Source: an uncultured Desulfobacteraceae bacterium (lineage in GTDB: Bacteria; Desulfobacterota; Desulfobacteria; Desulfobacterales; 4572-123). From it: a stretch of 64,000 nucleotides of DNA. The notes beneath the pieces were generated by a model. The model was given only the letters and a program-made list of their open reading frames with translations, did not search any database and had not been told where the DNA came from. The stretch covers positions 10,561-74,560 of the forward strand of contig CAYQNS010000002.1 of assembly GCA_964418755.1 (NCBI GenBank), given 5' to 3'. The position numbers and the translations under genes were made by a program. Shown here piece by piece: positions 10,851 through 38,212 of this stretch; positions within the stretch are counted from its first letter, which is position 1, and the number at the start of each line of letters is the position of its first letter.

Positions 10851-10859
10851 AGGTTCCCG

Positions 10860-14439: not shown

Positions 14440-14460
14440 ACAGAATACCTTTTATGGCTG

Positions 14461-15921: not shown

Positions 15922-17000
15922 TGGTTTATCATTTTCTATATCCGCTGCACACTATTTTTTCGGGCTTCAATGTATTCCGGTACATTACCTTCAGGACCAT
16001 CTGCGCCGGCCTTACCGCCCTGCTGATCTGTTTTTTTCTGGGTCCCTGGGTCATCCGAAAACTTTCGGCCCTGCAGGTGAGGCAATATATCCGGGATGAT
16101 GGACCGCAAACCCATCTGAAAAAGGCCGGCACGCCCACCATGGGCGGCATACTGATCATCTCTTCGGTGACTGTATCCGCACTGCTGTGGAGCGATCTGT
16201 CCAACTATTTTATCTGGATTGTTTTACTGGTCACCCTCGGCTTTAGCGGGGTGGGGTTTATTGATGATTACCTGATGCAGATAAAAAAGCAGAGCAAGGG
16301 CTTGAGTGCCCGCAACAAGCTGGCCCTGCAGATTGTTATCGCCCTTCTGGCCGGGGTTCTGGTTTATGTCAACCCGGGCTTTGATACCCGTGTCACGCTG
16401 CCGTTTTTTAAAAATATTTCACCGAATCTTGACTGGGGATATATTTTCTTTGCGGCCCTTGTGATCGTGGGGGCCTCCAACGCCGTCAACCTGACCGACG
16501 GACTGGACGGACTGGCCATCGGCCCGGTAATTGTGGCCGCCGGCACCTATATGATTTTTGCCTACATTGCCGGGCATGTAAAAATAGCCGGCTATCTCCA
16601 GGTCAGCTATATTGCCGGCGGCGGGGAAATAGCGGTTTTCTGCGGTGCTCTGGCCGGGGCTGGGATGGGATTTTTATGGTTCAATGCTTATCCGGCCCAG
16701 ATTTTCATGGGGGATGTGGGTTCACTGCCGCTGGGAGCTGCCCTGGGAACAGTTGCGGTTATCACCAAACAGGAGATCCTCCTTGTGCTGGTAGGGGGCC
16801 TGTTCGTGATCGAGGCCCTGTCGGTTATTTTTCAGGTAAGCTTTTTCAAGGCCACACATGGCCGCAGAATTTTTAAAATGGCGCCGCTGCACCATCATTT
16901 TGAATTAAAAGGCTGGCCCGAACCCAAAGTGATCGTCCGGTTCTGGATCATCGCCATTACCCTGGCGCTGATTTCCATGAGTACATTGAAACTCAGGTAG
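15921..17000 (+). CDS. mraY: phospho-N-acetylmuramoyl-pentapeptide transferase
   Basis: The 359-aa polytopic membrane protein carries [13 protein letters not shown] and HHHFE motifs. Confidence 0.95.
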
Positions 17001-17058
17001 GGGTTAAATGAAAATTATGAATTATAAATACGGACTGATGAATAAAGTAGCAGGTAGA

Positions 17059-17089
17059 ATCGTAGGGTGGGCTGTGCCCACCAATAGAC
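17059..17089. repeat. REP-like palindromic element atcgtagGGTGGGCtgtGCCCACCaatagac (copy 1)
   Basis: It has a 7-bp perfect palindrome core. A near-identical 32-nt copy lies at 39031-39062. It sits in the only large gap (136 nt) inside the dcw operon. Confidence 0.8.
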
Positions 17090-17136
17090 AAAATACCTTC
17101 AGCCTAAATAACCTTCAACCTTCAGTCTAATCGAAA

Positions 17137-18540: not shown

Positions 18541-19670
18541 AAAAAGAAACGGGAAAAACAACAAAACATTTCCAGACGGCGGTTTATGATCTCAAGCTGC
18601 TTTTTCCCGTACTTTTTCTGGTTGGCATCGGTATTGTAATGATCTACAGCTCAAGTTCGGCCCTGGCTTTGGAAAAATATAAAACCGATTATTATTTTCT
18701 GGTCAAGCAGGGAATCTTTTCAGTGCTGGGTATCGTAGTGCTGGTATTTTGCCGGCATTTTCCGTACCGGTTTTATCGCTCACTGGTATACCCGATTCTG
18801 ATTTTGGCCTGGCTTTTACTGCTGGCTGTCCTGATTACGGATCTGGGACATTCTGCGGGGGGAGCCCTGCGGTGGCTGAGGCTTGGCTTTTTCAGCTTCC
18901 AGCCGTCTGAACTGGCCCGTTTTGCCCTGATTATTTACCTGGCTTATTCCATGAGTAAAAAGGGGGGCCAGTTAAAAGAGTTTTCCGTAGGATTTTTGCC
19001 CCACGTGCTGATATTGGGTGTTTTTACGGCACTGATCATGCTGCAGCCTGATTTCGGTTCCGCGGTGATGCTGGCAACCATCACCTGGATCATGCTTTTT
19101 TTGGGAGGGGTCCGGCTTTGGCACCTAGGATCGACATTGGTGATACTGCTGCCCATAGGCTATTTTGTAATGATCAATGCTCACTACCGGTTTGTCAGGC
19201 TCATGAGCTTCATGGATCCCTGGCAGTATCCCACCGATGCCGGTTACCAGATTATTCACAGCCTGATGGCATTCGGTACCGGGGGGCTATGGGGTACCGG
19301 CATCGGCAAGGGGTATCAAAAACTTTTTTATCTTCCCGAGCCCCATACCGATTTTATTTTTTCAGTCATCGGTGAGGAGCTTGGCCTGATCGGTGTCATT
19401 GCAATCATGGGGCTTTATATACTTATTTTCTGGAGGGGGCTCACAATAGCCAGGAGCACATCCGATACTTTCGGCATGTTTGTGGCCGCCGGACTCACGA
19501 TTTCCATCGGACTGCAGGTCTGCGTGAACATGGGAGTCACCCTGGGGCTTTTGCCCACCAAAGGGCTGAGCCTGCCTTTTTTAAGTTACGGCGGTTCATC
19601 TTTGCTGCTCAACATGGCGGCAATGGGTATATTGATGAATATAGGAGCACATAGTGGCAAACGGGCCTGA
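18537..19670 (+). CDS. ftsW: SEDS-family peptidoglycan glycosyltransferase FtsW
   Basis: The 377-aa polytopic protein contains FQPSE, LPEPHTDFIF and PLPFLSYGGSS motifs. Confidence 0.9.
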   Translation: MKKETGKTTKHFQTAVYDLKLLFPVLFLVGIGIVMIYSSSSALALEKYKTDYYFLVKQGIFSVLGIVVLVFCRHFPYRFYRSLVYPILILAWLLLLAVLITDLGHSAGGALRWLRLGFFSFQPSELARFALIIYLAYSMSKKGGQLKEFSVGFLPHVLILGVFTALIMLQPDFGSAVMLATITWIMLFLGGVRLWHLGSTLVILLPIGYFVMINAHYRFVRLMSFMDPWQYPTDAGYQIIHSLMAFGTGGLWGTGIGKGYQKLFYLPEPHTDFIFSVIGEELGLIGVIAIMGLYILIFWRGLTIARSTSDTFGMFVAAGLTISIGLQVCVNMGVTLGLLPTKGLSLPFLSYGGSSLLLNMAAMGILMNIGAHSGKRA

Positions 19671-20817
19671 ATTAAAAAACGGAAAAACAATTGCAGGGGG
19701 AAATGGCCCGGCAACCGAACTTCGTCCGCAAGGCCCTTTGAAAATATTGATCGCCGGGGGCGGCACCGGGGGCCATCTATTTCCGGGAATTGCCATTGCT
19801 CAAGCCTTTGAGGTGAAAAACCCGTGCAACCGTATTGTGTTTGTGAGCATCGGCAATGCCCTGGAGCAGTCAATACTGTCTAAAAAGGGTTTTGAGCTCA
19901 AACAGATCCGCGTCGAAGGTTTTAAGCAGCGGGGAGTTTTCAACCAGGCAAAGGCCCTGTTGAAAATTCCTCCTGGAATTTTTCAATCGATACGAATTAT
20001 TAAAAAATTCCGACCCGACCTGGTCATCGGCGTGGGCAGCTATGCCGCCGGACCGGTGGCGGCAGCGGCATGGCTTCTGGGCATAAAAATCGTGCTGCAC
20101 GAACAAAATATTCTACCCGGGCTGACCAATCGAATGCTTGCCGGGATAGCCGACCGGATCTATGTATCATTTAAAAACCCGCCGGCATTTTTCAGCCCCG
20201 CCAAAACAAGGATCACCGGCAATCCCGTCCGGAGTGAGATTCTGCATTCGGCAGGTCGGGGACGTGAAAAAAAGCAGGCATTTACGGTTCTGATCATCGG
20301 TGGCAGCCAGGGGGCCCACAGCATCAACATGGCTATAGCGGATGCATTGCAGCATATACCGGACAGGGATCGGTTTTTCTTTATCCATCAGACCGGCGCC
20401 AAGGATCTTGACAAGGTCACGCAGGCCTATCGGAAAAACCGCATGCCCGGAAAAATCCGAGCCTTTTTCAGCGATATGGCGCAGCCGTACAGCCTTGCCG
20501 ATCTGATCGTCTGCCGGGCAGGGGCCACCACCGTGGCGGAGGTCACGGCTCTCGGAAAAGCGGTGATTTTTATTCCCTTTCCGTTTGCCGCCGATAATCA
20601 CCAGGTATTAAACGCGCGTATTTTGAGTGATGGCGGGGCCGCCGAAACAATACTGGAAAATGATCTTGACGGCCGGCTTCTGGCGCAGCGAATCCGGTAT
20701 TATGAAGAGCACCCGCGGCAACTTGCCGGTATGGCCGGACGGGCTGCAGACTGGGGGCATCCCGACGCGGCCGAGGATATTGTTACGGATTGTTACCGAT
20801 TACTTGATAGAGGCTGA
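19654..20817 (+). CDS. murG: undecaprenyldiphospho-muramoylpentapeptide beta-N-acetylglucosaminyltransferase
   Basis: It has the GGGTGGHLFPG loop. The GTG start at 19654 gives a 35-aa leader before the loop, so TTG about 19738 (LKILIAGGG) is an alternative start. Confidence 0.9.
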   Translation: MANGPELKNGKTIAGGNGPATELRPQGPLKILIAGGGTGGHLFPGIAIAQAFEVKNPCNRIVFVSIGNALEQSILSKKGFELKQIRVEGFKQRGVFNQAKALLKIPPGIFQSIRIIKKFRPDLVIGVGSYAAGPVAAAAWLLGIKIVLHEQNILPGLTNRMLAGIADRIYVSFKNPPAFFSPAKTRITGNPVRSEILHSAGRGREKKQAFTVLIIGGSQGAHSINMAIADALQHIPDRDRFFFIHQTGAKDLDKVTQAYRKNRMPGKIRAFFSDMAQPYSLADLIVCRAGATTVAEVTALGKAVIFIPFPFAADNHQVLNARILSDGGAAETILENDLDGRLLAQRIRYYEEHPRQLAGMAGRAADWGHPDAAEDIVTDCYRLLDRG

Positions 20818-20903
20818 ATTTCCAATTTCACCGTTCCGTGAACGGATACAATAAACCATGCCCTTTGGAGTTGGATGGACACAAAGCAAAGGCAGAAAAT
20901 ATA

Positions 20904-22280
20904 ATGTATCAAAAAAAATATCATATCCACTTTGTAGGAATCGGCGGCATCGGCATGAGCGGTATTGCCGAACTGCTTTTAAACCTGGGTTACCAGGTTT
21001 CCGGTTCCGATTTAAAGTCATCGGATATCACACGCAACCTGCAATCCCTGGGCGGTATTTTCTTTGAAGGACATACTGGAGAACAGATCGCCGGTGCCGA
21101 TGTGGTGGTTACATCGTCGGCCATCAATTCCGAAAATCCGGAAATCAAGGCAGCCCACAGGGCATCCACACCGGTCATCCCCCGGGCCGAAATGCTGGCC
21201 GAACTAATGCGCCTGAAATACAGCATTGCCATTGCCGGGGCCCACGGTAAGACCTCCACTACTTCCCTGGTCTCCGCAATCCTGGAACGTGGCGGCCTGG
21301 ATCCCACAGTAGTGATCGGCGGCAAATTAAAAAGCATCGGTTCCAATGCACTCCTGGGCAAGGGAGAATTTATCGTTGCCGAAGCCGATGAAAGTGACGG
21401 ATCCTTTTTAAGATACTCTCCCAGCATAGCCGTGGTCACCAACATCGATCGCGAACATCTCGATTTTTACAAAGACCTGGACGAAATCAAACAGGTCTTT
21501 CTGGATTTTCTATACAGGGTTCCTTTTTATGGAGTGGCCATCCTTTGCCTGGACAACGAGCCCATTCAATGTCTGATTCCACAAATAAAAAAGCGATTTA
21601 CAACCTACGGTATGACCAGCCAGGCTGATTTCCAGGCCAAGAATGTCATATTCGATGGGCTCAAGACCCGCTTTACCCTTTATCACCAGAGCGAGGTGCT
21701 GGGGGATATTACATTAAATCTGCCAGGTACCCATAACGTGTATAACGCACTGGCCGGAATTGCCGTCGGGATTGAACTGAATATTCCCTTTGGCGTCATA
21801 AAGGAGGCTTTAGAAACGGTTGAAGGGGTTCAGCGCCGTCTGGAAGTGAAGGGCCGGATTCGTGATATCGTAGTTGTAGACGACTATGGTCATCATCCCA
21901 CGGAAATTAAAACCACCCTGCAGGCAGTCAAAAAAAGCTGGCCTGACCGACGCAAAGTAGTGGTATTTCAGCCGCACCGCCACACCCGGACCCGTGCCCT
22001 GTTTGATGAGTTCAGTCGCTGTTTTTATCAATCCGATCTGCTCATGGTGCTTCCCATATATGCAGCCGGCGAAAAAGAGATTGCGGGGATTGACAGCCGC
22101 AGCCTGGTTGAAGCCATTCGCCGGCATGGTCATAAGCAGGTACTGTCTGCTGATAGCTTTGAAGAGGCCGTTGAAAAACTGTATCCGATTCTCAACAAGG
22201 GAGATATCCTTCTTACGCTGGGGGCCGGAGACGTATGGAAAGTCGGCACAACCATACTGGATAAAATGGGGAAACATTGA
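20904..22280 (+). CDS. murC: UDP-N-acetylmuramate--L-alanine ligase
   Basis: MYQKKYHIHFVGIGGIGMSGIAELL is the typical MurC N-terminus, and the P-loop is IAGAHGKTSTT. The ORF-track start at 20838 was trimmed. Confidence 0.9.
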   Translation: MYQKKYHIHFVGIGGIGMSGIAELLLNLGYQVSGSDLKSSDITRNLQSLGGIFFEGHTGEQIAGADVVVTSSAINSENPEIKAAHRASTPVIPRAEMLAELMRLKYSIAIAGAHGKTSTTSLVSAILERGGLDPTVVIGGKLKSIGSNALLGKGEFIVAEADESDGSFLRYSPSIAVVTNIDREHLDFYKDLDEIKQVFLDFLYRVPFYGVAILCLDNEPIQCLIPQIKKRFTTYGMTSQADFQAKNVIFDGLKTRFTLYHQSEVLGDITLNLPGTHNVYNALAGIAVGIELNIPFGVIKEALETVEGVQRRLEVKGRIRDIVVVDDYGHHPTEIKTTLQAVKKSWPDRRKVVVFQPHRHTRTRALFDEFSRCFYQSDLLMVLPIYAAGEKEIAGIDSRSLVEAIRRHGHKQVLSADSFEEAVEKLYPILNKGDILLTLGAGDVWKVGTTILDKMGKH

Positions 22281-23218
22281 ACACAGAGACTCGCGAGTGG
22301 CTTACAGACCGTTTCGGCGGCAGTATCCGATTTGATGAACCCATGTCAAGGCATACTTCATTAAAAGTCGGGGGACCGGCAGATATCCTGGCGCACCCTG
22401 TAAACCTTGAAGATCTGGTTGAACTGATCAACGGCTGCAGAAAAAGAAACCTTCCATTGCTGGTCATGGGAGGCGGAACCAACACACTGGTAAAAGATTC
22501 GGGCATTCGGGGCATGGTTGTTGTACTGTCAAAAGGTTTTGATAAAATCAAACAAAAGAGTCCGGCAAACGGGCAAACGGTTATTACCGCCATGGCGGGG
22601 GCCAGGCTCGGCAGTCTTTGTGCATTTGCCGCCAGACAGGGGCTCAAGGGTTTGAATTTTGCTACAGGTATTCCCGGAAGCGTAGGCGGTGCAATTCTTA
22701 TGAACGCCGGAACGGCGTCCGGATGTATGGGCGATATTTTAACATCGCTCACAATACTTACTTCCAGAGGTAAAAAAATGACCTTTGGTCGGGACCGGCT
22801 TCGGTTTGATTATCGGAATCTATCCGGAATCACAGGCAGTGACGAAAACCTGGAATCAGCCGTCATTCTGGAAGGCAGTTTCGGATTGCAGCCCTTTGAC
22901 ATACACGTATTGCAGAAAAAGGCCCGTGCGCTAATGCGCGAGCGCATGAAAAAACAGCCGGTTGGTTTACCCGGGGCCGGATGCTTTTTTAAAAATCCCC
23001 GGACGGGAAAATCCGCCGGGCGACTCATGGAAGAGGCAGGGTTGAAGGGCAAACGCATCGGCGGGGCGCAAGTTTCGACGGTTCATGCCAACTTTATCGT
23101 CAACCGGGACAATGCATGTGCCGCCGACATTCTGGCATTGATGGAAAATGCTCAACAAACCGTATTTAAAAAATGTAACGTCAGGCTGCAGCCAGAGGTG
23201 AAGATTGTTGGGATATAA
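22277..23218 (+). CDS. murB: UDP-N-acetylenolpyruvoylglucosamine reductase
   Basis: It has an FAD-binding PCMH-type N-terminus (TSLKVGGPAD..., GGGTNTLV) and a C-terminal MurB domain. Confidence 0.9.
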   Translation: MNTETREWLTDRFGGSIRFDEPMSRHTSLKVGGPADILAHPVNLEDLVELINGCRKRNLPLLVMGGGTNTLVKDSGIRGMVVVLSKGFDKIKQKSPANGQTVITAMAGARLGSLCAFAARQGLKGLNFATGIPGSVGGAILMNAGTASGCMGDILTSLTILTSRGKKMTFGRDRLRFDYRNLSGITGSDENLESAVILEGSFGLQPFDIHVLQKKARALMRERMKKQPVGLPGAGCFFKNPRTGKSAGRLMEEAGLKGKRIGGAQVSTVHANFIVNRDNACAADILALMENAQQTVFKKCNVRLQPEVKIVGI

Positions 23219-24059
23219 GAAAAAGCCGAAAAACTACTACAAAAAAAAGAGCCGGCCACAAAAATATATTCCGTTATGGAAACGATTGACGTCCGGCTTG
23301 AAGGTATGCAGTGGCCTGATAGTTCTGGCAGCCATAAGCTCCCTTTTTGTACTCGGCTATGATCTGCTGACCCAGTGTGAATATTTCAGCGCCCGGGAAA
23401 TCAAAATTCAGGGGATACACCGGCTGGCCCGGGAACAGATCTGCAGCCAGGCACGGGTCCGTCCGGGTGTCAATATTCTGCATGTCAATCTTGCATTGAC
23501 CCGCAAAAGGCTTATCGCCCATCCCTGGATTGATGATGCCGAAGTCCGCCGGGAGCTGCCGGATGCCATTGTCATCCGCGTAACAGAGCATATTCCACTG
23601 GCTCTGCTGGATCTGGGACAGAAATTCCTGATCGATACCAACGGAGAAATATTTAAAAAATACAGACTTTCGGACCCTGCGAATCTGCCGATTGTCAACG
23701 GGTTGTCCTATTCCGATCTTAATGTTGCCGGCGTTCCCCGCAGCCCGGCCTACAGTGCGGTCATAGATGTACTGAAGCTTGGGATGGACCGGAAAAGCGC
23801 CGTGCCGAATCATCTGATCAAAAAAATCCAGGTGGATCGGGAAATGGGGCTGACACTGCTGGCCTTTGACCAAACGACATTCATCAAACTAGGCTATGAC
23901 AACTACCCGGACAAGTATGTCCGGTTGAAAAATGTATTGAGCTACCTTCGCAGGCAGCCGAATTTACCGGATATTCGGCAGATCGATCTTAACAATATCG
24001 ATCGTATCATTGTGAATACCAATATTATAGGAACAAGCGCCGACCACAAGGAGGTCTAA
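23205..24059 (+). CDS. ftsQ: cell division protein FtsQ
   Basis: It has a basic N-terminus, a single TM helix and a POTRA-like segment (I.I.G...). It sits before ftsA. Confidence 0.8.
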   Translation: MLGYKKKPKNYYKKKSRPQKYIPLWKRLTSGLKVCSGLIVLAAISSLFVLGYDLLTQCEYFSAREIKIQGIHRLAREQICSQARVRPGVNILHVNLALTRKRLIAHPWIDDAEVRRELPDAIVIRVTEHIPLALLDLGQKFLIDTNGEIFKKYRLSDPANLPIVNGLSYSDLNVAGVPRSPAYSAVIDVLKLGMDRKSAVPNHLIKKIQVDREMGLTLLAFDQTTFIKLGYDNYPDKYVRLKNVLSYLRRQPNLPDIRQIDLNNIDRIIVNTNIIGTSADHKEV

Positions 24060-24060
24060 G

Positions 24061-25287
24061 TTGCAGGGAAATGAAAATATAATTGTCGGTCTGGATATCG
24101 GAACAACCAAAATATGTGCCGTTGTCGGAGAAATATCCGGCAAGGAGATAAACATCATTGGTATCGGCACCCACCCTTCCATAGGACTGCGTAAAGGAGT
24201 GGTGGTTAATATCGAATCCACAGTGGATTCAATTAAAAAGGCGGTTGAAGAGGCCGAGCTCATGGCCGGTTGTGAAATATCCTCTGTATATGCCGGGATT
24301 GCCGGCGGTCATATCACGGGTTTTAACAGCCATGGCATCGTTGCCATCAAGGGAACTGAAATTATACAAAACGATGTGGAACGGGTGATTGATGCTGCCC
24401 GGGCTGTGGCAATTCCCATGGACCGTGAAGTAATCCATGTGCTCCCTCAAGAATTTATCGTGGATGACCAGGTCGGTATTCAGAATCCGGTGGGCATGGC
24501 CGGTGTTCGTCTGGAAGCCAAAATTCACATTGTTACCGGAGCTGTTACATCGGCCCATAACATCGTTAAATGCGCCAACCGCAGTGGCCTGGATGTTTGC
24601 GATATTGTTCTGGAATCGCTGGCTTCCGGGGAGGCGGTCCTCACTGAAGAGGAGAAAGAACTGGGGGTGGCACTCCTTGATCTGGGGGGTGGCACATCGG
24701 ATCTGGCTATTTTTTCAGACAAAAATATCAAGCATACCTTTGTGCTGGCGCTGGGCGGGAATAACCTGACCAATGATATTGCCATCGGGTTGAGAGCACC
24801 GCTGGCCGAAGCCGAAAAAATAAAGAAAAAATACGGCACGGCCCTGACCCGCGATATCAACGGAGAAGAAACCATCGAGGTGCCGGGTATGGGCGGGCGC
24901 AAACCCCGAAAACTGCCCCGCCAGATCCTGGGGGAAATTCTGGAACCCCGAATGGAGGAAATATACACCCTTGTTCGGCGAGAAATCTATCGGGCCGGGA
25001 TGGAAGATCTCATTACGTCCGGAATGGTTCTGACCGGTGGAACGGCTCTGCTTGAAAATGCCGGCGAAGTTGCTGAATCCATATTTAACGTACCCACCCG
25101 CCTGGGCCGACCAAGGGGCATCCGCGGGCTGGTGGATGTTGTCAATAACCCCATGTATGCCACGGGTGTAGGGCTGGTTCTATATGGCGCACGCCATCAA
25201 GTACGAAAAAAATTCAGAATTCGGGACAAAAATATTTTTAACCGGGTGATGACCCGTATGAAAAAATGGTTCCGGGATGTAATTTAA
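24061..25287 (+). CDS. ftsA: cell division protein FtsA
   Basis: It has the actin-like ATPase N-terminus VGLDIGTTKICAVVGE and a C-terminal amphipathic helix (MKKWFRDVI). The start is TTG. Confidence 0.95.
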   Translation: MQGNENIIVGLDIGTTKICAVVGEISGKEINIIGIGTHPSIGLRKGVVVNIESTVDSIKKAVEEAELMAGCEISSVYAGIAGGHITGFNSHGIVAIKGTEIIQNDVERVIDAARAVAIPMDREVIHVLPQEFIVDDQVGIQNPVGMAGVRLEAKIHIVTGAVTSAHNIVKCANRSGLDVCDIVLESLASGEAVLTEEEKELGVALLDLGGGTSDLAIFSDKNIKHTFVLALGGNNLTNDIAIGLRAPLAEAEKIKKKYGTALTRDINGEETIEVPGMGGRKPRKLPRQILGEILEPRMEEIYTLVRREIYRAGMEDLITSGMVLTGGTALLENAGEVAESIFNVPTRLGRPRGIRGLVDVVNNPMYATGVGLVLYGARHQVRKKFRIRDKNIFNRVMTRMKKWFRDVI

Positions 25288-25344
25288 ATGAACAGGTGTT
25301 TAACCCAAAATTATATATATTAACAACCAGAGAAAGGGGGGGAA

Positions 25345-26544
25345 ATGTTTACCTATATCGAAAATGAAAAATCAGCAAAGATAAAAGTGATCGGTGTTGG
25401 CGGGGCCGGTGGTAACGCCATAAACAACATGATCGAATCCCAGTTGAAGGGGGTAAAGTTCATCGTGGCCAACACCGATGCCCAGAGCCTTGAAACCTCC
25501 GAGGCACCGGTGAAGATTCAGATGGGAGAACGGTTGACCGAAGGGCTCGGGGCCGGTGCCAATCCACAGGTCGGCCGGGATGCGGCCCTTGAAAACGCGG
25601 ATGCTATCCAAAGCGCCCTGGAAGACAGCCATATGGTATTTATAACCGCAGGTTTCGGCGGCGGCACCGGTACCGGGGCCGCACCGGTTATTGCTGAGAT
25701 TGCCAAGGAGATGGGTGCCCTGACCGTGGCGGTGGTGAGCCGGCCGTTTTCATTCGAGGGTAAAAAGCGTGCCCGCCAGGCCGACGAAGGGATCGACGCC
25801 CTGAAAGAGGTGGCGGATACGGTCATCACGATTCCCAACGACCGCCTCAGGGGACTGGCCTCTAAAAGTGCAAAAATGATCGATATGTTCAAAAAAGCCG
25901 ACGAAGTCCTGCTGCACTCGGTAAAAGGTATCACCGATCTGATCATGATGCCCGGGCTGGTGAATCTCGACTTTGCCGATGTCCGGACCACCATGTCCAG
26001 AGCCGGTATGGCCATCATGGGCATCGGCATTGCCAGCGGTGAAAACCGGGCCGTGGAAGCTGCCGAACGGGCCATTTCTCATCCTCTCCTGGAAGATATT
26101 TCCATCTCGGGGGCCAAGGGTGTCCTGATGAACATCAGTTGTACCAGTGATCTGACCATGGAAGAGATGACCGAAGCCTCCGACAGAATCTACAAAGAGG
26201 TCGGCGATGATGCCGAAATTATCTGGGGAACGGTGATCGATGACAGCCTGGGAGATGAAATGCGGGTCACCGTTATTGCCACCGGCATCGGCAACGGTAT
26301 CGGCAACGGTGCAGGCAATTTTGCCCGTCCTGTCAAAATAGAGAAATTTGCACCGAGGGGCAAAATAAGAGATCTTACCCCGGCTGAAATGCAGGCGGCG
26401 ACCCACCTTGACGAGCCGACTTTCCTGCGGGAACAGAAAGCCGTGGGTGAATCATCAGGCGCCACTTATCGGGGCTATAAGGGGATTATAATCGACAATA
26501 ATGACCTTGATGTACCGACTTTTTTGAGAAGGAAAGCCGACTGA
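25345..26544 (+). CDS. ftsZ: cell division GTPase FtsZ
   Basis: It has the tubulin signature GGGTGTGAAPVIA and the conserved C-terminal peptide DLDVPTFLRRKAD. Confidence 0.97.
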   Translation: MFTYIENEKSAKIKVIGVGGAGGNAINNMIESQLKGVKFIVANTDAQSLETSEAPVKIQMGERLTEGLGAGANPQVGRDAALENADAIQSALEDSHMVFITAGFGGGTGTGAAPVIAEIAKEMGALTVAVVSRPFSFEGKKRARQADEGIDALKEVADTVITIPNDRLRGLASKSAKMIDMFKKADEVLLHSVKGITDLIMMPGLVNLDFADVRTTMSRAGMAIMGIGIASGENRAVEAAERAISHPLLEDISISGAKGVLMNISCTSDLTMEEMTEASDRIYKEVGDDAEIIWGTVIDDSLGDEMRVTVIATGIGNGIGNGAGNFARPVKIEKFAPRGKIRDLTPAEMQAATHLDEPTFLREQKAVGESSGATYRGYKGIIIDNNDLDVPTFLRRKAD

Positions 26545-28627: not shown

Positions 28628-28772
28628 TTGCCATGCCCCATGCGGCCATGCATTGCATGCGGGGTGTGTAATAGCAATTAACCAATTAAATTTAATAGTT
28701 ATTTGTTAAAAATTCAACCAAATTTTTTATAAAAATGCGTAAAACCCGGAGTAAAAAATACTTGAAAGATAA

Positions 28773-28797
28773 AAGATGGTATGTTAATTACCATCTT
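28773..28797. promoter_or_regulatory. perfect 9-bp inverted repeat AAGATGGTA-N7-TACCATCTT overlapping a candidate promoter of the cytochrome/rnf operon
   Basis: TTGAAA lies at 28762-28767, and 17 nt later TAATTA sits inside the repeat loop. The repeat is about 65 nt upstream of the cytochrome ATG. Confidence 0.3.
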
Positions 28798-28860
28798 TGT
28801 TTTATTGATGTCCATGCAGCTTTTTGTTAGATGTCCAAATTGTGAAAGGAATCCTGTAGC

Positions 28861-29289
28861 ATGACCTCAAAGAAGGAATTGAAGTTTGCCTACCGCCTTG
28901 CGATTGTTCTTATGATTTTAGGAATTTTCTGCTATGCGGCCTACTCACAGAAGATCCCGGATCCCCCCATGCGAATGATGTTTCAAAGCGCCGCCGGAAA
29001 GATTCTCTTTGACCACCAAAGCCATGATGTAAACTATGGCATCGCATGCATTGACTGCCATCATCACTTTGAAGAAGAGGAAACCGAGTTTCGGGCCTGT
29101 GGCGACTGTCATGTCCATCCCGATGCAAAACCACCGACTGCAGTCTGCCTGGAGTGCCACGAAGAGGACGAAGTCGATCCTGGGGAAGATGCTCTTGAAA
29201 GGGCGGACGCATTCCACGACCAGTGTATCGGCTGCCATGAAGAAAATGATATTGAGCCTGTCCAATGTTCGGGATGTCATGTCATGTAA
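28861..29289 (+). CDS. membrane-anchored/secreted multihaem cytochrome c (five CXXCH; cytochrome c3/c7-like)
   Basis: It has an N-terminal hydrophobic segment, then CIDCH, CGDCH, CLECH, CIGCH and CSGCH. F-D-H-x-x-H precedes the first haem motif, as in class III cytochromes. Confidence 0.85.
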   Translation: MTSKKELKFAYRLAIVLMILGIFCYAAYSQKIPDPPMRMMFQSAAGKILFDHQSHDVNYGIACIDCHHHFEEEETEFRACGDCHVHPDAKPPTAVCLECHEEDEVDPGEDALERADAFHDQCIGCHEENDIEPVQCSGCHVM

Positions 29290-29345
29290 AATCGAATTTT
29301 CCGGCCGACTCTTGTTTGTCACCATCCAAAATTAAGGTTAAGCTT

Positions 29346-30632
29346 ATGATAAAGAGAGCATTCCGGGGTTTAAAAGCCCCACAAATCGAGTATGAACTGC
29401 TGCATGACACACCGGTCGGGCCCAGAAGCATCTTGCCGTCGAAAACAGTTACGCTCCTGCTGCCGGGTAAATACGAACGGAAAGACAAATTGACCCTGTG
29501 CGCCGGGGATAGCATTAAAACCGGGCAAAAACTCAGTCCCTATGAAGATAGCGACGATTATGCAATATCGAGCGTAACCGGCACGATTGCCTCCGTGGCG
29601 CCTTATACCGGCGATTTCGGGCAGTCCTTCACGACGATCATCATTCAGGCCGCTGAAAAAGAAAAAACCGATGACGCCTTTTCCGCTGCATGCAGTGATT
29701 CGGTGCGAAACGCCGTCACGGATTTTTTGGCCTGCGTGCCGGGAAGACCGCCGCTGGATCTTCTGGCCCGTCCTGACAAGCCCATTCACACCCTTGTGAT
29801 ATGCGGTATGGACGCAGATTTGATGATCGCCACCAACCAGCATATTATCAAAACCCGGATCGACGCAGTGACCCGCGGAATAAAAATTCTAAAAAATGCC
29901 TATGGCATTGAGAAGGCCATTATCGCCCTTCCCAGAGACCTGGTTTCCGGGTTCGGGCATGTGGGCGCCCGGTTGATTGCCGTCGATGCCTGCTATCCGT
30001 CCGCCAATCACCGCATGATCATGTACAAGGCGCTAAAACAGGTAGTGCCGGCGGATAAAAACTGCGAAGACCTTGGTGTCTGTTTTATCAGCGCCGAGGC
30101 CGCGGCTTCCATTGGAAGTGCCTTTGAAAAGGGCAGAATACCGTTTACCAAAACCATTACCCTGATCAACAAAGACCGAAAAAAAATAATGATTTCAGCC
30201 CGGATCGGCACCCCGGTAAGGGACATCTTCAAGGCCTGCGATGTCACGGTCAACGAACGGGACCGCATCATTTTCGGCGGCCCCATGACCGGCACGGCCG
30301 TCTTTTCGGAAAACCATCCCGTCGGGCCGGATACCGATGCCATTATCGTGCAGGCCAATAAAGACGTTACGCTGGTTTCAGATTATCCATGTGTCAACTG
30401 CGGCGAATGCGTCCGTCTATGTCCGGCCAACATTCAAGTCAACATGCTGGTCCGGTTTCTCGAGGCCGGAGAGTATCAGACCGCCGCCGATGAGTATGAC
30501 CTCCACTCCTGCATTGAATGCGGACTTTGCAGCTTTGTGTGTGAATCAAAAATACCTGTTTTTCAATATATTCGACTGGCAAAATATGAGCTTGCCCGGG
30601 AGAAAGCAGCGGAGGCAATCGATGATGAATAA
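29346..30632 (+). CDS. rnfC: RnfC-like subunit (2x[4Fe-4S]; nucleotide-binding loop apparently degenerate)
   Basis: The start was trimmed to ATG 29346 (MIKRAF, AAGG upstream). It has an RnfC_N-like barrel, GGPMTG, CVNCGECVRLCP and CIECGLCSFVCE. It is followed by rnfDGEA. Confidence 0.8.
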   Translation: MIKRAFRGLKAPQIEYELLHDTPVGPRSILPSKTVTLLLPGKYERKDKLTLCAGDSIKTGQKLSPYEDSDDYAISSVTGTIASVAPYTGDFGQSFTTIIIQAAEKEKTDDAFSAACSDSVRNAVTDFLACVPGRPPLDLLARPDKPIHTLVICGMDADLMIATNQHIIKTRIDAVTRGIKILKNAYGIEKAIIALPRDLVSGFGHVGARLIAVDACYPSANHRMIMYKALKQVVPADKNCEDLGVCFISAEAAASIGSAFEKGRIPFTKTITLINKDRKKIMISARIGTPVRDIFKACDVTVNERDRIIFGGPMTGTAVFSENHPVGPDTDAIIVQANKDVTLVSDYPCVNCGECVRLCPANIQVNMLVRFLEAGEYQTAADEYDLHSCIECGLCSFVCESKIPVFQYIRLAKYELAREKAAEAIDDE

Positions 30633-31581
30633 CAAAAAGTTCATAGTATCCCATGCGCCTTTTTATCACAATGGAAGCAAAATCTCCTCTACCGGCTATA
30701 ATATCATGGGGGCGACCCTGCCTGCCGTACTGATGGGCATTTACATATACGGGGTGCCTGCCCTGGGCGTGGTGGCGCTCTCCATATCTTCGGCCATGCT
30801 CTGGGAACTGCTCATGAACAAAGTGATGAAGCTTCCGGTAACCATCGGTGACGGGAATGCAGCTCTCATCGGTATGCTTTTTGCCATGCTGGTTCCGGCC
30901 ACCCTTCCCTGGTGGGCGGTCGTCACCGGAACTTTTACGGCCATTGTCATCGGTCAACAAATCTACGGCGGCATCGGCGGTAATCCGTTTAATCCGGTGA
31001 TCGTGGCCCTTACCATCCTCATGGTCTCCTGGAAGGATATCTTTGATTTTGACACTGCCCTGCTCAACTATGATTTTAATTTTGTAACCCTTTATCCTCT
31101 GGCAGCCCTGAAGCATTTTGGTTTGTCGTCAGTGGAAAGCTTTACACCCGGCGCACTTTTGCTGGGGCAGCAAACCGGCGGTATCGGTTCAACCTTCGGG
31201 CTGGGGCTTATCCTGGGCGGCATCTACCTTATTATAAGAGGGTATATCCGCTGGGAAATATCCCTTTCTTTTCTGGGAGGCGTCCTGATCACCGCATGGC
31301 TCTTCCAGTTGTCTGATCCGGCTGTTTATGCGGGGCCTGTTTTTCACCTTTTGACCGGTTATACCCTTATCGGGGCTTTTTTCCTGGCCACTGAAAATTC
31401 TTCCTCGCCGGTTAATTTCATCCCGATGCTGATTTACGGTGCCGGGGGTGGTATCATGGCGGTACTTATTCGTAATATCGGGGTTTATGTTGACGGCGTT
31501 CTTTTGGCTATTCTTCTTATGAACCTGGTTAATCCCATGCTGGATAAAATCAGACCCAAAGCACTTGGAAAGGTAGTGTAA
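30622..31581 (+). CDS. rnfD: RnfD/NqrB-family membrane subunit
   Basis: ATG 30622 has GGAGG 6 nt upstream and overlaps the rnfC stop. The N-terminus (VSHAPFYH) and the polytopic profile are typical of RnfD. Confidence 0.88.
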   Translation: MMNNKKFIVSHAPFYHNGSKISSTGYNIMGATLPAVLMGIYIYGVPALGVVALSISSAMLWELLMNKVMKLPVTIGDGNAALIGMLFAMLVPATLPWWAVVTGTFTAIVIGQQIYGGIGGNPFNPVIVALTILMVSWKDIFDFDTALLNYDFNFVTLYPLAALKHFGLSSVESFTPGALLLGQQTGGIGSTFGLGLILGGIYLIIRGYIRWEISLSFLGGVLITAWLFQLSDPAVYAGPVFHLLTGYTLIGAFFLATENSSSPVNFIPMLIYGAGGGIMAVLIRNIGVYVDGVLLAILLMNLVNPMLDKIRPKALGKVV

Positions 31582-31582
31582 A

Positions 31583-32173
31583 ATGCGCGAAATGATAAAA
31601 ATGGTAGTTGTTCTTACCATTCTGAGCTCTCTTTCAGGGGGCCTTCTGGCGGCGGTACGCAATGGCACCAAAGACAGGATTGAAAATCAGCAGCTTCAGA
31701 TGGTTAAGGGGCCCGCCATTCGTGCAATCCTGGAAGGCTGTACAAATGATCCCGTGGCCGATCGTTTTAAACTCAAGGACGACGCCACGGAAAGAAGCTT
31801 TTTTATCGGTATTTTTAACGGCAAACATGAAACCATAGCTTTTGAAGCCAGCGGCAAAGGGTATGGCGGCGATGTCGGTCTGATGGTGGCCGTCAATCTC
31901 ACAAACGACAAACTGGTGGGCGTCGGCGTTACCACCCACAGTGAAACGCCGGGACTCGGTGCCAAAGCAAAAACCGACCCTGCTTTTTCAAAACAGTTTA
32001 AGGGAGCTTCGATCCTGGAGCCTTTCAAGGTGACCAATGACGGTGGAGTAATCAATGCCCTCAGCGGTGCAACAATCACATCTAGAGCCGTTTGTGCGGC
32101 CGCCACTGAGGCAGGTCGAATTTACCAGCGGCTTAAACCCCAAATCAGCGATAAATTAAAGAGCTTACCCTAA
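31583..32173 (+). CDS. rnfG: RnfG/NqrC-family FMN-binding subunit
   Basis: It has an N-terminal TM helix, ETPGLGAK, and the flavinylation motif LSGATITS. Confidence 0.9.
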   Translation: MREMIKMVVVLTILSSLSGGLLAAVRNGTKDRIENQQLQMVKGPAIRAILEGCTNDPVADRFKLKDDATERSFFIGIFNGKHETIAFEASGKGYGGDVGLMVAVNLTNDKLVGVGVTTHSETPGLGAKAKTDPAFSKQFKGASILEPFKVTNDGGVINALSGATITSRAVCAAATEAGRIYQRLKPQISDKLKSLP

Positions 32174-32186
32174 CAGGGAGATCAAA

Positions 32187-32780
32187 ATGGCCAAATCGAT
32201 TGTTCAGGAATTTACCAAGGGGCTGTGGAATGAAATACCGCCGTTCAGGCTGGTACTTGGTCTCTGCCCTGTTCTGGGTGTTACAACGACAATGGAAAAC
32301 GGGCTCGGTATGGGGATTGCGACCACATTTGTCCTGTTATGCTCCAATGTTCTGGTTTCGGCCCTGCGCAGCGTTATTCCCGCCAAGGTAAGGATTGCCT
32401 GCTTCATCATCATTATCGCCACCTTTGTGACGGTGGTCGAACTTCTCATGCAGGCCTTTGCGTACTCACTGTTTCTCAAGCTGGGTATGTTTATCCCGCT
32501 GATCGTTGTCAACTGTATCGTGCTGGGGCGGGCCGAGGCATTTGCCTTCAAAAACAACATGGTTCTGTCCATGGCCGACGGTCTGGGCATCGGCATCGGA
32601 TTTACCCTCAGTCTGGGCGCCCTGGGAGCCGTTCGCGAGATTCTCGGTACAGGCACATTTTTTGGTAATGCACTGTTCGGCGCATCTTTCCATCCGTTTG
32701 TCTTTATGGTCCAGGCACCGGGCGCCTTTGTATGCCTGGGCCTGATGCTCTGTTTCATGAACATGGTCGGGAATAAATAG
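32187..32780 (+). CDS. rnfE: RnfE/NqrD-family membrane subunit
   Basis: It contains the LGLCPVLGVTT and PLIVVNCIVLGRAEAFA motifs. Confidence 0.9.
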   Translation: MAKSIVQEFTKGLWNEIPPFRLVLGLCPVLGVTTTMENGLGMGIATTFVLLCSNVLVSALRSVIPAKVRIACFIIIIATFVTVVELLMQAFAYSLFLKLGMFIPLIVVNCIVLGRAEAFAFKNNMVLSMADGLGIGIGFTLSLGALGAVREILGTGTFFGNALFGASFHPFVFMVQAPGAFVCLGLMLCFMNMVGNK

Positions 32781-32796
32781 ATTTAGGAGAAAGTAA

Positions 32797-33372
32797 ATGG
32801 GCGACTACATTGTCCTTATCATCAGCTGCATTTTTGTAAATAATATCCTGCTGGCCCAGTTTTTAGGAAACTGCCCTTTTTTTGGTACCTCCAAAAAGAT
32901 GGAAACCGCGGTGGGCATGGCCATGGCCGTCATATTCGTTCTGGTTATGGCCGGAGCCATTACTTGGATGGCCGAAACCTTTATTCTGCAAAAGTTCGGC
33001 CTGGAATTTTTACGCACCATCGTATTTATCCTGGTCATCGCGGCTCTGGTGCAATTCGTGGAGATGTTTTTGAAAAAAAGTATTCCGGCCCTGTACGCCG
33101 GACTGGGTATCTTTCTACCGCTGATCACCACCAACTGTGCCGTCATGGGGGCCTGTCTGATCAACATCAAGGAAGAGTACACCTTTGTCCAGACTTTGGT
33201 TGCGTCTTTCAGCTACGCGTCCGGTTTCGGCCTGGCACTGATTCTTTTTGCCGGTCTGCGGGAACGGATACTGCTTGCAAGGGTACCCAAACCGCTTCAG
33301 GATACCTCTATTGCGCTTATTACCGCAGGTATTATTTCTCTTTCCTTTTTTGCCTTCAGGGGAATGGTGTAG
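32797..33372 (+). CDS. rnfA: RnfA/NqrE-family membrane subunit
   Basis: It contains the LGNCPFFG and LPLITTNCAVMG motifs and is 191 aa. Confidence 0.9.
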   Translation: MGDYIVLIISCIFVNNILLAQFLGNCPFFGTSKKMETAVGMAMAVIFVLVMAGAITWMAETFILQKFGLEFLRTIVFILVIAALVQFVEMFLKKSIPALYAGLGIFLPLITTNCAVMGACLINIKEEYTFVQTLVASFSYASGFGLALILFAGLRERILLARVPKPLQDTSIALITAGIISLSFFAFRGMV

Positions 33373-33383
33373 GAAAATTACAG

Positions 33384-33941
33384 ATGGCCGAACATGTATG
33401 CCCGGTATGGGTTGGATATCTTCTGGCCAGCCCTTTGAGAAAAATATTCCAGAATCCTGACAAAATACTTTCCGCCTACGTAAAAGAAGGTATGAAGGTT
33501 CTGGATATTGGTTGTGCAATGGGTTTTTTCAGTCTTCCCATGGCCCGGATGGTAGGTTCCGGCGGCAAGGTAATCTGTGTGGACATCCAACCTAACATGC
33601 TTTCATCTTTAAAAAAAAGAGCTGAAAAAGCCAAAATGGCGCAAAGGATTGAAATGCGCCTTGCCAATCGTGATTCCTTTTGCATTGATGATTTGAAAGG
33701 CAAAATCGATTTTATTATAACCTCCGCGGTTGCCCATGAACTGCCTGACCCTTTACTTTTTTTTTCTGAAACATGGGAAGTCTTGACGGAAAAGGGGACA
33801 TTTTTACTGACGGAACCGTCCGGTCATGTTTCCAAAAAAAAGTTCAAAGCAACGATTTCAACGGCCGAAGCCCAGGGGTTTAAAGTCATGAAGAGGCCCC
33901 GGATAAAGCGCAGTCACAGTGTTTTACTGGGAAAGGCTTGA
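33384..33941 (+). CDS. class I SAM-dependent methyltransferase
   Basis: It has motif I, VLDIGCAMGFF. The N-terminus is H-x-CP-x-W...L..PLRK. Only the part from ATG 33384 of the 32964..33941 ORF is taken, because the upstream part overlaps rnfA out of frame. Confidence 0.8.
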   Translation: MAEHVCPVWVGYLLASPLRKIFQNPDKILSAYVKEGMKVLDIGCAMGFFSLPMARMVGSGGKVICVDIQPNMLSSLKKRAEKAKMAQRIEMRLANRDSFCIDDLKGKIDFIITSAVAHELPDPLLFFSETWEVLTEKGTFLLTEPSGHVSKKKFKATISTAEAQGFKVMKRPRIKRSHSVLLGKA

Positions 33942-33965: not shown

Positions 33966-34601
33966 CTAAATCTCTATTATCCTGCCGACACCGCCTTGAA
34001 TGTATTTATCCGGATAAAGTTTTTTGATTTTATCACTAAACCGGGTGCAGTGGGTAGGACAGATCCAATCAATTTTTTTGATCAGATTAAACGTTTGAAA
34101 GCCATGCAGCCCGCCGATAATAGCAGAAACATCACCAAATTGTTCGGCGACGGTAAAAATCTGGTCAACACCGGGGTGTGAGCATCCTGCAATGACAATA
34201 ATTCCGTCCTTTTGTTTTACCATAAGGGACTGTTCGATCCCCGCCAATGTACCGGTTGACCAGATGTTTTCATGAATCATGCGACTTTTCTCGATCCGTA
34301 TCACTTTAGTGTTTTGATCAGGATTTTTAAATCCTGCAGGCGCATAAACCGGCACGTTGTTTATTGCCAGGAATTGGGGAAGTCCTCCCGTGTGATCCCA
34401 GTGATGATGGGATATAAAAATCTCATCGACCGCCATGGGGTCGATATTCAGTTGCTTGATATTATAAAGAAGCAAACTCCCCTTTGCCCCGGTATCAAAA
34501 AGTATTGTTTTTCCGAATACTTCAGCCAGACAGGCAAAGCCCCAGTCGGGTTTTAAATTTTTATTCCATGTTGTATTGTCATATAGAATTGTAATTTTCA
34601 T
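33966..34601 (-). CDS. MBL-fold metallohydrolase (COG1237-like)
   Basis: It reads MKITILYDN...GFACL...ILFDTG...ISHHHWDHTGGL. Confidence 0.8.
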   Translation of the reverse strand: MKITILYDNTTWNKNLKPDWGFACLAEVFGKTILFDTGAKGSLLLYNIKQLNIDPMAVDEIFISHHHWDHTGGLPQFLAINNVPVYAPAGFKNPDQNTKVIRIEKSRMIHENIWSTGTLAGIEQSLMVKQKDGIIVIAGCSHPGVDQIFTVAEQFGDVSAIIGGLHGFQTFNLIKKIDWICPTHCTRFSDKIKKLYPDKYIQGGVGRIIEI

Positions 34602-36730: not shown

Positions 36731-38212
36731 ATGGCCAGAAGAAATTTAAAAGCAAATTTTTCAACACGATCGGGGTTCGGTATCAATGCGTTTACAGACA
36801 ACGAACTGGAGGCGATTCATTTTGCATCCCTTGAAGTGCTTCAAAGGACAGGAGTCAAGATTGAATCCGAAAAAGCGCTGGAAATTTTCCACGGGGCCGG
36901 GGCAAGTGTCGAGCAACACGACGGTTATGGTATTGTCAAAATCCCGAATTATATTGTCGAGGACTGTATCCGCCGGGCTCCCAGAATCGGATGCTATTAC
37001 GGCAGACGTCCTGAAGACGATTATATTACCGATGGGGCCCGGGTCGGTTTTTCGGCAGGGTTCGGCGAACATGTCAAAATCATCGACCTGGATACAAAAA
37101 AGGTCAGGTCAACGGTAAAAAAGGATCTGGCAGCCATTACGCGGATTCAGGATTATCTGGATGTCATTACAATCGTAGAACGGGCCGCCTGTTCAGGCGA
37201 TCAGCCACCGGCGACCCAGACGCTGCATAATTACGAAGCCATGGTCCAAAATTCCAGCAAGCACTGTTTTTTAGGATTCGGATGCGGCAAAAATGCCGAA
37301 AAAATTATCGAGATGGCAAAAATTGCCTCCGGCGGGGAGGATAAATTCAAAAACCGCCCCATTGTGACCGGCTTTGTCTGCCCGACCAGTCCGCTGACAA
37401 TTATTCGGGACGGTTGTGAAACCATCATGACATGTGCCGAAAACGGCGTCGGTATTGCCGTGATTTCCATGTCCATTTCCGGGGCATCTTCGGCCGCAAC
37501 CCTGGGCAGTGTCGTGGTGCAGCATAATGCCGAAGTCTTAAGCGGCATCGTACTGGCCCAGCTCACGGCCAAGGGGACCCCATGCACCTACTGCGGATGC
37601 AGTACCATCATGGATATGCGAACGGGCCTGTCTCCCGTGGGGGTCCCGGAAATGGGGCTGCTCAGCGTGGCATGGGCAAAGCTGGCCCAGTACTACCAGC
37701 TTCCCAGCCTGGTGGGCGGCTGCGGCTCGGACAGCAAGCTCCCGGACGCCCAGCAGGCTTATGATTTCAGTCTGACCGCCATGCCCGCGGCCCTGGCCGG
37801 TGCCAACATCATCTACGGTATCGGTGCCATCGAGTCGATTCTCACCTTTGACTATGCCGCCATGATCATGGGGGCTGAACAGGCGGAAAGGATTATGCGG
37901 GTTGTCGGCGGGATTGACGTCAGCGATGAGGCCATGGCCCTGGATTTAATCCATGAAATCGGCCCCGGCGGTCAATTTCTCACCCATGAACATACCTACC
38001 GACACATGAGAGAGATGTCCCAGTCAAAGCTGTTTGACCGAAGGACCCGTGATGCATGGATGGATGCCACAGGCGGCATGGATATTGCGCAGCGCGCTTA
38101 TAAAGAAGCCGGGCGAATCATAAACGAGCATACACCGGCGCCCCTGCCCGAGGGCGCGGCAACAGCCATGCGGGCGATCATTAAAGAGTATGAAGCGGAG
38201 CTCGGGTTATAA
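36731..38212 (+). CDS. MttB-superfamily (trimethylamine methyltransferase family) protein, non-pyrrolysine type
   Basis: The 493-aa ORF is uninterrupted. The N-terminus (F.D.ELE.IH..SLEVL...GV) and the overall length are typical of COG5598. AAGAGG lies upstream. Confidence 0.85.
   Translation: MARRNLKANFSTRSGFGINAFTDNELEAIHFASLEVLQRTGVKIESEKALEIFHGAGASVEQHDGYGIVKIPNYIVEDCIRRAPRIGCYYGRRPEDDYITDGARVGFSAGFGEHVKIIDLDTKKVRSTVKKDLAAITRIQDYLDVITIVERAACSGDQPPATQTLHNYEAMVQNSSKHCFLGFGCGKNAEKIIEMAKIASGGEDKFKNRPIVTGFVCPTSPLTIIRDGCETIMTCAENGVGIAVISMSISGASSAATLGSVVVQHNAEVLSGIVLAQLTAKGTPCTYCGCSTIMDMRTGLSPVGVPEMGLLSVAWAKLAQYYQLPSLVGGCGSDSKLPDAQQAYDFSLTAMPAALAGANIIYGIGAIESILTFDYAAMIMGAEQAERIMRVVGGIDVSDEAMALDLIHEIGPGGQFLTHEHTYRHMREMSQSKLFDRRTRDAWMDATGGMDIAQRAYKEAGRIINEHTPAPLPEGAATAMRAIIKEYEAELGL

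Follow-up and report, generated by a model that had tools for sequence, protein, structure and literature searches.

How does an Rnf cluster come to lack rnfB, and what can the remaining subunits still do? The question is raised by a 64-kilobase (kb) stretch of contig CAYQNS010000002.1 from an uncultured Desulfobacteraceae bacterium (hereafter the window), in which a gene for a five-haem cytochrome c is followed by rnfCDGEA and then, where rnfB would be expected, by a gene for an S-adenosylmethionine (SAM) methyltransferase. Comparison with related loci indicates that this is an Rnf2-type cluster from which rnfB was recently deleted. We consider it probable that the remaining core works and that an RnfB-type module reaches it from elsewhere in the genome. 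Genes were called from an open reading frame (ORF) listing and translation, and families were assigned with Pfam and NCBIfam models. A sequence-only reading of the window had described the same layout, including the spacings and the convergent gene downstream, and the listing and translations bear it out in every element (lengths in amino acids, aa, and nucleotides, nt):

28861-29289, plus strand: cytochrome c gene, 142 aa, five-haem, class III (c3-family)
29346-30632, plus strand: rnfC, 428 aa, after a 56-nt gap from the cytochrome gene
30622-31581, plus strand: rnfD, 319 aa, overlapping rnfC by 11 nt; alternative start at 30586
31583-32173, plus strand: rnfG, 196 aa, after a 1-nt gap from rnfD
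32187-32780, plus strand: rnfE, 197 aa, after a 13-nt gap from rnfG
32797-33372, plus strand: rnfA, 191 aa, after a 16-nt gap from rnfE
33373-33383, plus strand: deletion scar at the former site of a ~2.1-kb large rnfB, placed by comparison with rnfB-bearing relatives and remnants
33384-33941, plus strand: class I SAM methyltransferase gene, 185 aa, after an 11-nt gap from rnfA
33966-34601, minus strand: metallo-beta-lactamase-fold gene, convergent with the methyltransferase gene

Assignment to the Rnf2 type

The sequence-only reading had proposed an "undescribed variant system". By its sequence, however, the cluster belongs to the published Rnf2, or Desulfobacula toluolica Tol2-type, complex of the Desulfobacteraceae, which is already in PMC5109826 and PMC11887813. 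The summary of Woehlbrand et al. (2016, Proteomics 16:973) given in PMC5109826 ascribes to the D. toluolica Tol2-type Rnf an RnfB of ~700 aa with NAD-binding sites, an RnfC that has neither the 51K nor the soluble-ligand-binding domain, and a cluster-encoded acidic cytochrome of 15 kDa. A 2025 study uses the name Rnf2 and counts the complex in the core genome of the Desulfobacteraceae (PMC11887813 and supplement), and some Desulfobacteraceae have both Rnf1 and Rnf2 (PMC5109826; PMC11887813 supplement). The type is characterised computationally and proteomically, and its mechanism is only proposed.

The window cluster shares with this type an RnfC without the 51K flavin mononucleotide (FMN)/NADH domain, as judged by sub-cut-off model scores and a deleted FMN loop, the order cyt-rnfC-D-G-E-A, a c3-family cytochrome gene (28861-29289) and the absence of apbE from the cluster. 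Its cytochrome, ~16 kDa and acidic, is like Dmul_C27670 (PMC5109826). The nearest relatives, at 82-86% RnfC identity and with the same ftsQAZ-radical SAM synteny upstream, are standard Rnf2 clusters of the Desulfobacterales, and the identity of the syntenic DNA to clusters with a large rnfB is 82-88%. What differs is that the defining ~700-aa RnfB is absent, both from the window and from 9 kb beyond it, and that a methyltransferase gene now abuts rnfA. RnfC homologues number more than 2,400, mostly in the Desulfobacterales (including Desulfonema), and the NCBI label for them is only "4Fe-4S dicluster domain-containing protein".

Wherever the contig of a related cluster continues past rnfA, and likewise in Desulfonema magnum, the next gene encodes a protein of 687-701 aa. 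Residues 7-199 of this large RnfB correspond to RnfB, and residues ~180-690 to an NfnB/GltD-type module for flavin adenine dinucleotide (FAD) and NAD(P)H with two further Fe-S clusters. Its gene lies directly after rnfA in loci L003, L004, L006, L008, L012, L020, L022, L024 and L025, and adjoins rnfA in 74 of the 78 informative metagenomic loci with a large rnfB. Four of the 78 (L034, L036, L037 and L040, all metagenome contigs from the Joint Genome Institute, JGI) have no rnf genes within 3 kb; since these genes stand alone, large RnfB is sometimes encoded apart from the Rnf2 core. Their neighbours encode DUF4139/DUF4140 proteins, a pyridoxal phosphate (PLP) enzyme and TauE.

Neither rnfB nor apbE was found in the window, in agreement with the earlier claim. 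A six-frame scan for CxxCxxCxxxC recovered the two RnfC motifs and, besides these, only one within an ORF of 66 aa; four large-RnfB proteins used as tblastn queries gave no match within the window; and Pfam annotation of all 64 kb plus 9 kb past the downstream edge returned no PF04060/RnfB and no ApbE. The sequence-only reading had named an rnfB (and apbE) gene immediately outside the window among the results that would overturn it, and neither gene lies in those 9 kb. Its description of an atypical, cytochrome-linked Rnf cluster without local rnfB or apbE is thus supported. A move of rnfB to another place within the window is ruled out by the same motif scan, tblastn search and annotation. 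The only candidate for a relocated rnfB, the P0122 cluster (89% identical to L008 RnfB), was rejected: those of its members whose context suffices for a judgement, from L004 and L012, lie normally after rnfA. As for apbE, none of the annotated Rnf2 loci has it nearby, so its absence is normal for the type.

Deletion of rnfB and the methyltransferase neighbour

At the DNA level, the window matches its relatives (82-88% identity; synteny dcw-ftsQAZ-radical SAM-cyt-rnfCDGEA) only as far as 33373-33379, at most 7 nt from the rnfA stop codon. Beyond rnfA the relatives carry the following:

L004, L020 (RnfC 82%) and L008 (RnfC 85%): intact large rnfB
L009 and L018 (99.9% identical, independent assemblies): 223-nt rnfB fragment
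L108: left junction as in L009 and L018, then the 3' third of rnfB, 52 nt and the methyltransferase gene
L106 and L107: the intergenic sequence that once separated rnfA from rnfB, without an rnfB ORF, then the methyltransferase gene (77%)

The fragment in L009 and L018 corresponds to nt 1465-1687 of the 2085-nt rnfB, is 78% identical to it and contains two in-frame stops. The L108 remnant spans residues 494-701, is frameshifted and ends at the native stop. It is flanked by GGAAATT direct repeats (GGAAA(A)TT), one copy of which is left in the window, and the window junction, TAGGAAAATT followed directly by ACAGATG, is the sequence expected after excision of the remnant between the repeats. The genes downstream in L106 and L107 match those of the window (GDSL lipase, PPIase, LysE, LUD, Lnt and PrfB). 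A neighbour-joining tree of the cyt-to-rnfA region unites the window, L108 and L009 in a clade with 100% bootstrap support and leaves L106 without firm placement (bootstrap 18-49). The end points of the L106 deletion differ from those of the deletion in the window, L108 and L009, so rnfB was probably lost independently in L106.

The comparison of relatives shows this deletion history: the missing rnfB goes back to a recent, lineage-specific deletion. The notion of rnfB-less operons as a designed clade fails on the same evidence: relatives at 82-85% RnfC identity have an rnfB of ~700 aa, and sister lineages carry its decayed fragments. The ancestor of the window's subclade had the order rnfA-rnfB-methyltransferase. 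A first deletion took roughly 490 codons from the start of rnfB, together with the spacer between it and rnfA, after which the remaining 3' part decayed and was trimmed differently lineage by lineage. In the lineage of the window, the remnant was wholly excised between the GGAAA(A)TT repeats, bringing the methyltransferase gene to 11 nt from rnfA.

The rnfA-methyltransferase junction recurs in no fewer than six independently assembled contigs, which come from six samples, and is also present in a deposited metagenome-assembled genome (consecutive accessions MBW2591793-99). These contigs, together with the remnant seen in both the L009 and L018 assemblies, rule out an assembly artefact. An inversion had been suspected since the RluD-CarD-HppA-Pth-L25 block, which follows rnfB in L006, lies ~14 kb downstream and reversed in the window. 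At the junction none is needed, as the methyltransferase block is the native neighbour within the subclade in L106 and L108.

A DDE transposase gene adjoins the methyltransferase gene in L109 (1444-2778, minus strand), and L009, L018 and L108, three independent contigs from related lineages, end at most 0.3-0.5 kb from the remnant or the methyltransferase gene. These two observations suggest a repeated mobile element at the edge of the locus, one that may have driven rearrangements.

The methyltransferase matches Methyltransf_31 at 2.8e-19 and receives no specific NCBIfam assignment. It belongs to a family of ~2,000 homologues in several phyla that has no known link to rnf, and it has no redox-cofactor motifs. 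The sequence-only reading saw in it a functional accessory or substitute at the RnfB position of a distinct rnfB-less Rnf variant. The 11-nt gap, the shared strand and the lack of a terminator-like site between rnfA and the methyltransferase gene agree with such a role, and the two genes are probably co-transcribed. The window, L106/L107 and L108 all preserve the adjacency, and purifying selection acts on the methyltransferase gene, its ratio of nonsynonymous to synonymous substitution rates (dN/dS) being about 0.19. The proposal is nevertheless largely refuted by L108, in which an 81% homologue of the window gene lies 52 nt past the stop codon of the rnfB remnant; because the gene stands beyond that stop codon, the adjacency predates the loss of rnfB and is independent of it. 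Moreover, the spacing between rnfA and the methyltransferase gene differs by lineage (11, 183 and about 680 nt), and both the breadth of the family and the missing redox motifs speak against the role. We therefore regard an accessory function as scarcely credible. The gene order in L108 identifies the methyltransferase as a passenger, the native downstream neighbour of rnfB.

Cofactor sites, selection and surroundings

The sequence-only reading rightly called the cluster atypical but overlooked its most informative oddities, namely an RnfC without the FMN/NADH site and an RnfD without the flavinylation threonine. The RnfC scores 181.6 bits against TIGR01945 (cut-off 245.95) and 27 bits against Complex1_51K (cut-off 31.2). 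In the alignment to C. tetanomorphum RnfC (7zc6_C), the glycine-rich FMN loop GMGGATFP becomes ACVPGRPP with a four-residue deletion, and NAAECEPYLTCD becomes CGMDADLMIATN, replacing the ECEP motif. The C-terminal 2x[4Fe-4S] domain is intact (motifs C349-C359 and C389-C399). Loss of the FMN/NADH site is common to all ten related clusters examined.

A population contig of 59 kb, L014 (JGI 3300025586, Ga0207996_1000166), is otherwise near-identical to the window and has a 14-nt deletion (AGGCCAATAAAGAC) in rnfC around 6983. It corresponds to window positions 30352-30365 and shifts the frame just ahead of the 2x[4Fe-4S] domain; either this allele has truly lost its function or the assembly is wrong there.

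The RnfD matches PF03116 at 6e-84 and scores 218 bits against TIGR01946, above the cut-off. Cryo-electron microscopy located a covalent FMN on T156 of A. woodii RnfD (PMC11889175). The equivalent residue in the window is Tyr (~31075-31105, 'VTLYPLAALK'), and all 10 Rnf2 RnfD sequences compared (window, L003, L004, L006, L008, L009, L022-L025) have Tyr, or Phe in one, at this position. The replacement is not mentioned in PMC5109826 or PMC11887813, where the remaining subunits are called 'very similar'. This clade-wide substitution, possibly unreported, may be a further clue to an electron routing unlike that of canonical Rnf.

The other subunits keep their predicted cofactor sites. The cytochrome has CXXCH motifs at residues 63, 80, 96, 122 and 136 behind a hydrophobic N-terminus (anchor or signal), and its mature part is acidic with an isoelectric point of about 4.5. 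It matches Pfam Cytochrom_CIII at 9.5e-11 and falls below the NCBIfam cut-off of the TmcA-like model; five CXXCH motifs are kept in the cytochromes of nine of the ten Rnf2 clusters compared. RnfG, the periplasmic FMN-binding subunit, scores 258 bits against NF045876 RnfG_DVU2794 (cut-off 205), and its flavinylation motif SGAT is intact at residue 161 and conserved across the clusters compared. RnfE (TIGR01948, 244.7 bits) and RnfA (TIGR01943, 247.6 bits) both exceed their cut-offs. Cys27 and Cys110 of RnfE and Cys26 and Cys114 of RnfA are conserved, and by analogy are presumed to ligate the intramembrane [2Fe-2S] cluster. In the rnfB-bearing locus L008 (9377-9919), the called rnfE codes for 180 aa, as against 197 aa in the window, with ~51 nt missing in frame, and no Pfam hit is on record for it; the short form reflects either a genuine indel or a fault of the assembly.

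Selection was assessed by pairwise Nei-Gojobori dN/dS between lineages. The values for the cytochrome gene and rnfCDGEA range from 0.02 to 0.19 in every pair, rnfB-less and rnfB-bearing alike, for example 0.10-0.16 for the cytochrome, 0.07-0.09 for rnfE and 0.02-0.05 for rnfA. The most direct comparison is that of L108 with L009: because both share the deletion, their divergence is necessarily younger than it. Their six genes, concatenated, yield a dN/dS of 0.107 (82 nonsynonymous and 209 synonymous differences). These genes are 93.4% identical between the two loci, and the rnfB remnant 86.5%, with an indel; the remnant gained stops and frameshifts while the six genes stayed intact. Branch dN/dS for the 74-codon rnfB remnant is too noisy for dating the loss. 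The rnfB-less lineages retain all presumed ligands, that is, the five haem sites, the eight cluster cysteines of RnfC, the RnfG SGAT motif, RnfE C27/C110 and RnfA C26/C114, and the six ORFs are intact in at least four species-level lineages. Given the low post-deletion dN/dS and the conserved ligands, the core is maintained by selection after the loss of rnfB. We found no report of an RnfB-less Rnf2 core under purifying selection in the literature searched.

Upstream of the rnf cluster lies the dcw cell-division cluster (mur/fts genes, ftsQ, ftsA and ftsZ; window 9912-26544), followed by a radical SAM gene. The dcw-radical SAM-rnf synteny is kept in relatives down to 57% RnfC identity (L006), which is an unusual degree of positional stability for a respiratory operon. 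The AT-rich interval of 233 nt between the radical SAM and cytochrome genes contains a perfect hairpin with a 10-bp stem (AAAGATGGTA...TACCATCTTT) at 28772-28798, which could terminate transcription of the radical SAM gene or act as an operator for the rnf genes. Promoter and terminator scans of the locus gave nothing above shuffled expectation. Further downstream, an MttB-family methyltransferase gene (36731-38212, plus strand) is full length without an internal stop, hence of the non-pyrrolysine type, and a URO-D/MtaA-like gene (58127-59206, minus strand) lies beside ABC transporters with solute-binding proteins. Together these two could be genes for quaternary-amine demethylation (e.g., of glycine betaine).

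Electron routes without a local RnfB

The window cluster shares with canonical RnfCDGEAB (A. woodii 9eri, C. tetanomorphum 7zc6 and A. vinelandii 8ahx) homologous membrane-core subunits (RnfD, G, E and A), the RnfG flavinylation motif, the RnfA/RnfE cysteine pairs and the C-terminal 2x[4Fe-4S] domain of RnfC. Unlike the canonical complex, it lacks the NADH/FMN-binding motifs of RnfC and, within the window, a polyferredoxin RnfB, and it adds a periplasmic multihaem cytochrome. Of the two canonical covalent FMN sites (Thr156 of RnfD and Thr185 of RnfG in A. woodii), that of RnfG is present as SGAT and that of RnfD is replaced by Tyr.

Two other cytochrome-linked systems offer partial parallels. 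The cluster of Desulfovibrio vulgaris (DVU2791-2798), which encodes the DhcA cytochrome, RnfCDGEAB and ApbE, likewise has a cytochrome c gene upstream of rnfC, and the window RnfG passes the model of the DVU2794 type; it differs in having a small RnfB and apbE, both absent from the window, and ten haems in its cytochrome versus five. Methanosarcina acetivorans Rnf with MmcA shares the rnf-linked multihaem cytochrome c and the idea of electron transfer from Rnf to an outer-face cytochrome, but it retains rnfB, and the window proteins score far under the cut-offs of the Methanosarcina-specific NCBIfam models. The Desulfovibrio cluster is of the canonical Rnf1 type (PMC11887813).

Na+-NQR (NqrABCDEF) shares the core order and, in the subunit at the RnfC position, the loss of the nucleotide site, which makes the window RnfC NqrA-like. 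It also shows by precedent that the cytoplasmic module which feeds the A/E pair (NqrD/E) is exchangeable, with NqrF in place of RnfB. In contrast to Na+-NQR, the window RnfC retains Fe-S clusters that NqrA lacks, and no NqrF-like gene is present. Scores with the Nqr models reach only 47-167 bits where the cut-offs are 235-450, and they fall far short of those with the Rnf models.

Judging from their intactness, ligands and purifying selection, the six genes would form a working membrane module. The periplasmic five-haem cytochrome c would exchange electrons with the FMN of RnfG, and the module would also hold the RnfA/E [2Fe-2S] centre and an RnfD/RnfC arm with two terminal [4Fe-4S] clusters and no nucleotide site. 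In a standard Rnf2 complex, the lost subunit would deliver electrons from NAD(P)H, perhaps also from ferredoxin, to RnfA/E. On indirect grounds we infer that an RnfB-type module is most likely supplied in trans, either by a second large rnfB or by the small rnfB from a canonical Rnf cluster in the same genome, whose product would dock onto the core. This is favoured because the RnfA/E ligands are under the strongest constraint (dN/dS 0.02-0.09) and because a cytoplasmic subunit serves this centre in all solved Rnf/Nqr complexes. The four stand-alone genes among the 78 large-rnfB loci and the joint occurrence of Rnf1 and Rnf2 in some Desulfobacteraceae are precedents for such an arrangement.

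Several observations weigh against supply in trans. Apart from those that adjoin rnfA, a close rnfB (85-90% identity) was not found in protein or metagenome collections, although these are not tied to the genome of the window's organism; the best match to the window among the genome representatives scanned is 86%, its own species not being represented. A scan of JGI metagenomes for rnfB likewise gave nothing above 76% identity, a weak negative since it was not limited to samples containing the organism. The repeated loss of rnfB, by a different deletion in L106, fits redundancy and dispensability of RnfB alike. Finally, the L014 frameshift is the sole sign of decay in the six genes and hints at a module that is dispensable in some cells at least.

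The main alternative is a core that is independent of RnfB. In this reading, cytochrome c and RnfCDGEA alone would carry electrons across the membrane, joining the cytochrome c pool of the periplasm to an Fe-S protein of the cytoplasm that docks on the two [4Fe-4S] clusters of RnfC, with no entry for NAD(P)H or ferredoxin; as a possible variant, a non-RnfB protein might dock on RnfA/E in the manner of NqrF. The selection on all six genes and the retention of their presumed ligands after the deletion accord with it, as do the two different deletions in related lineages and the failure of the collections searched to yield a close rnfB. The Rnf2 RnfC, already without an NADH site, would require a further partner anyway. 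Against it, the conserved RnfA/E cysteine pairs imply a [2Fe-2S] centre that is fed by RnfB or NqrF in all solved complexes, the missing covalent-FMN threonine of RnfD makes a path from G to D to C doubtful, and the searches covered collections rather than whole genomes of these lineages. We consider both forms of this alternative unlikely. Far less probable still is a decaying relic, in which the loss of RnfB would have inactivated the complex and set the other genes on the way to pseudogenes. The deletion itself and the loss of the RnfC Fe-S domain in one population variant (L014) would fit, but the ORFs remain intact in at least four species-level lineages, the post-deletion dN/dS of 0.03-0.19 cannot be told from that of rnfB-bearing pairs, and the one true pseudogene, the rnfB remnant, has collected stops, frameshifts and roughly twofold divergence over an equal period. 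A core maintained by selection and served by an RnfB-type module from elsewhere in the genome thus remains the reading that we prefer.

The main value of this analysis is corrective, since the "undescribed variant" turns out to be a published type and the "accessory" methyltransferase a by-product of the deletion. If the core were indeed independent of RnfB, then, with the loss of the RnfD threonine, the electron route of Rnf2 would differ from that in every solved Rnf/Nqr complex. If a trans copy of rnfB exists, the finding would amount to an operon rearrangement only. Reports describe Rnf2 as a constitutively abundant core complex of the Desulfobacteraceae, the dominant carbon oxidisers of marine sediments. 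That no fewer than four species-level lineages keep its RnfB-less core under purifying selection is of modest but real interest. Such lineages constitute a natural dissection experiment on Rnf2: should their whole genomes hold no RnfB, the cytochrome/RnfC branch would be functional alone.

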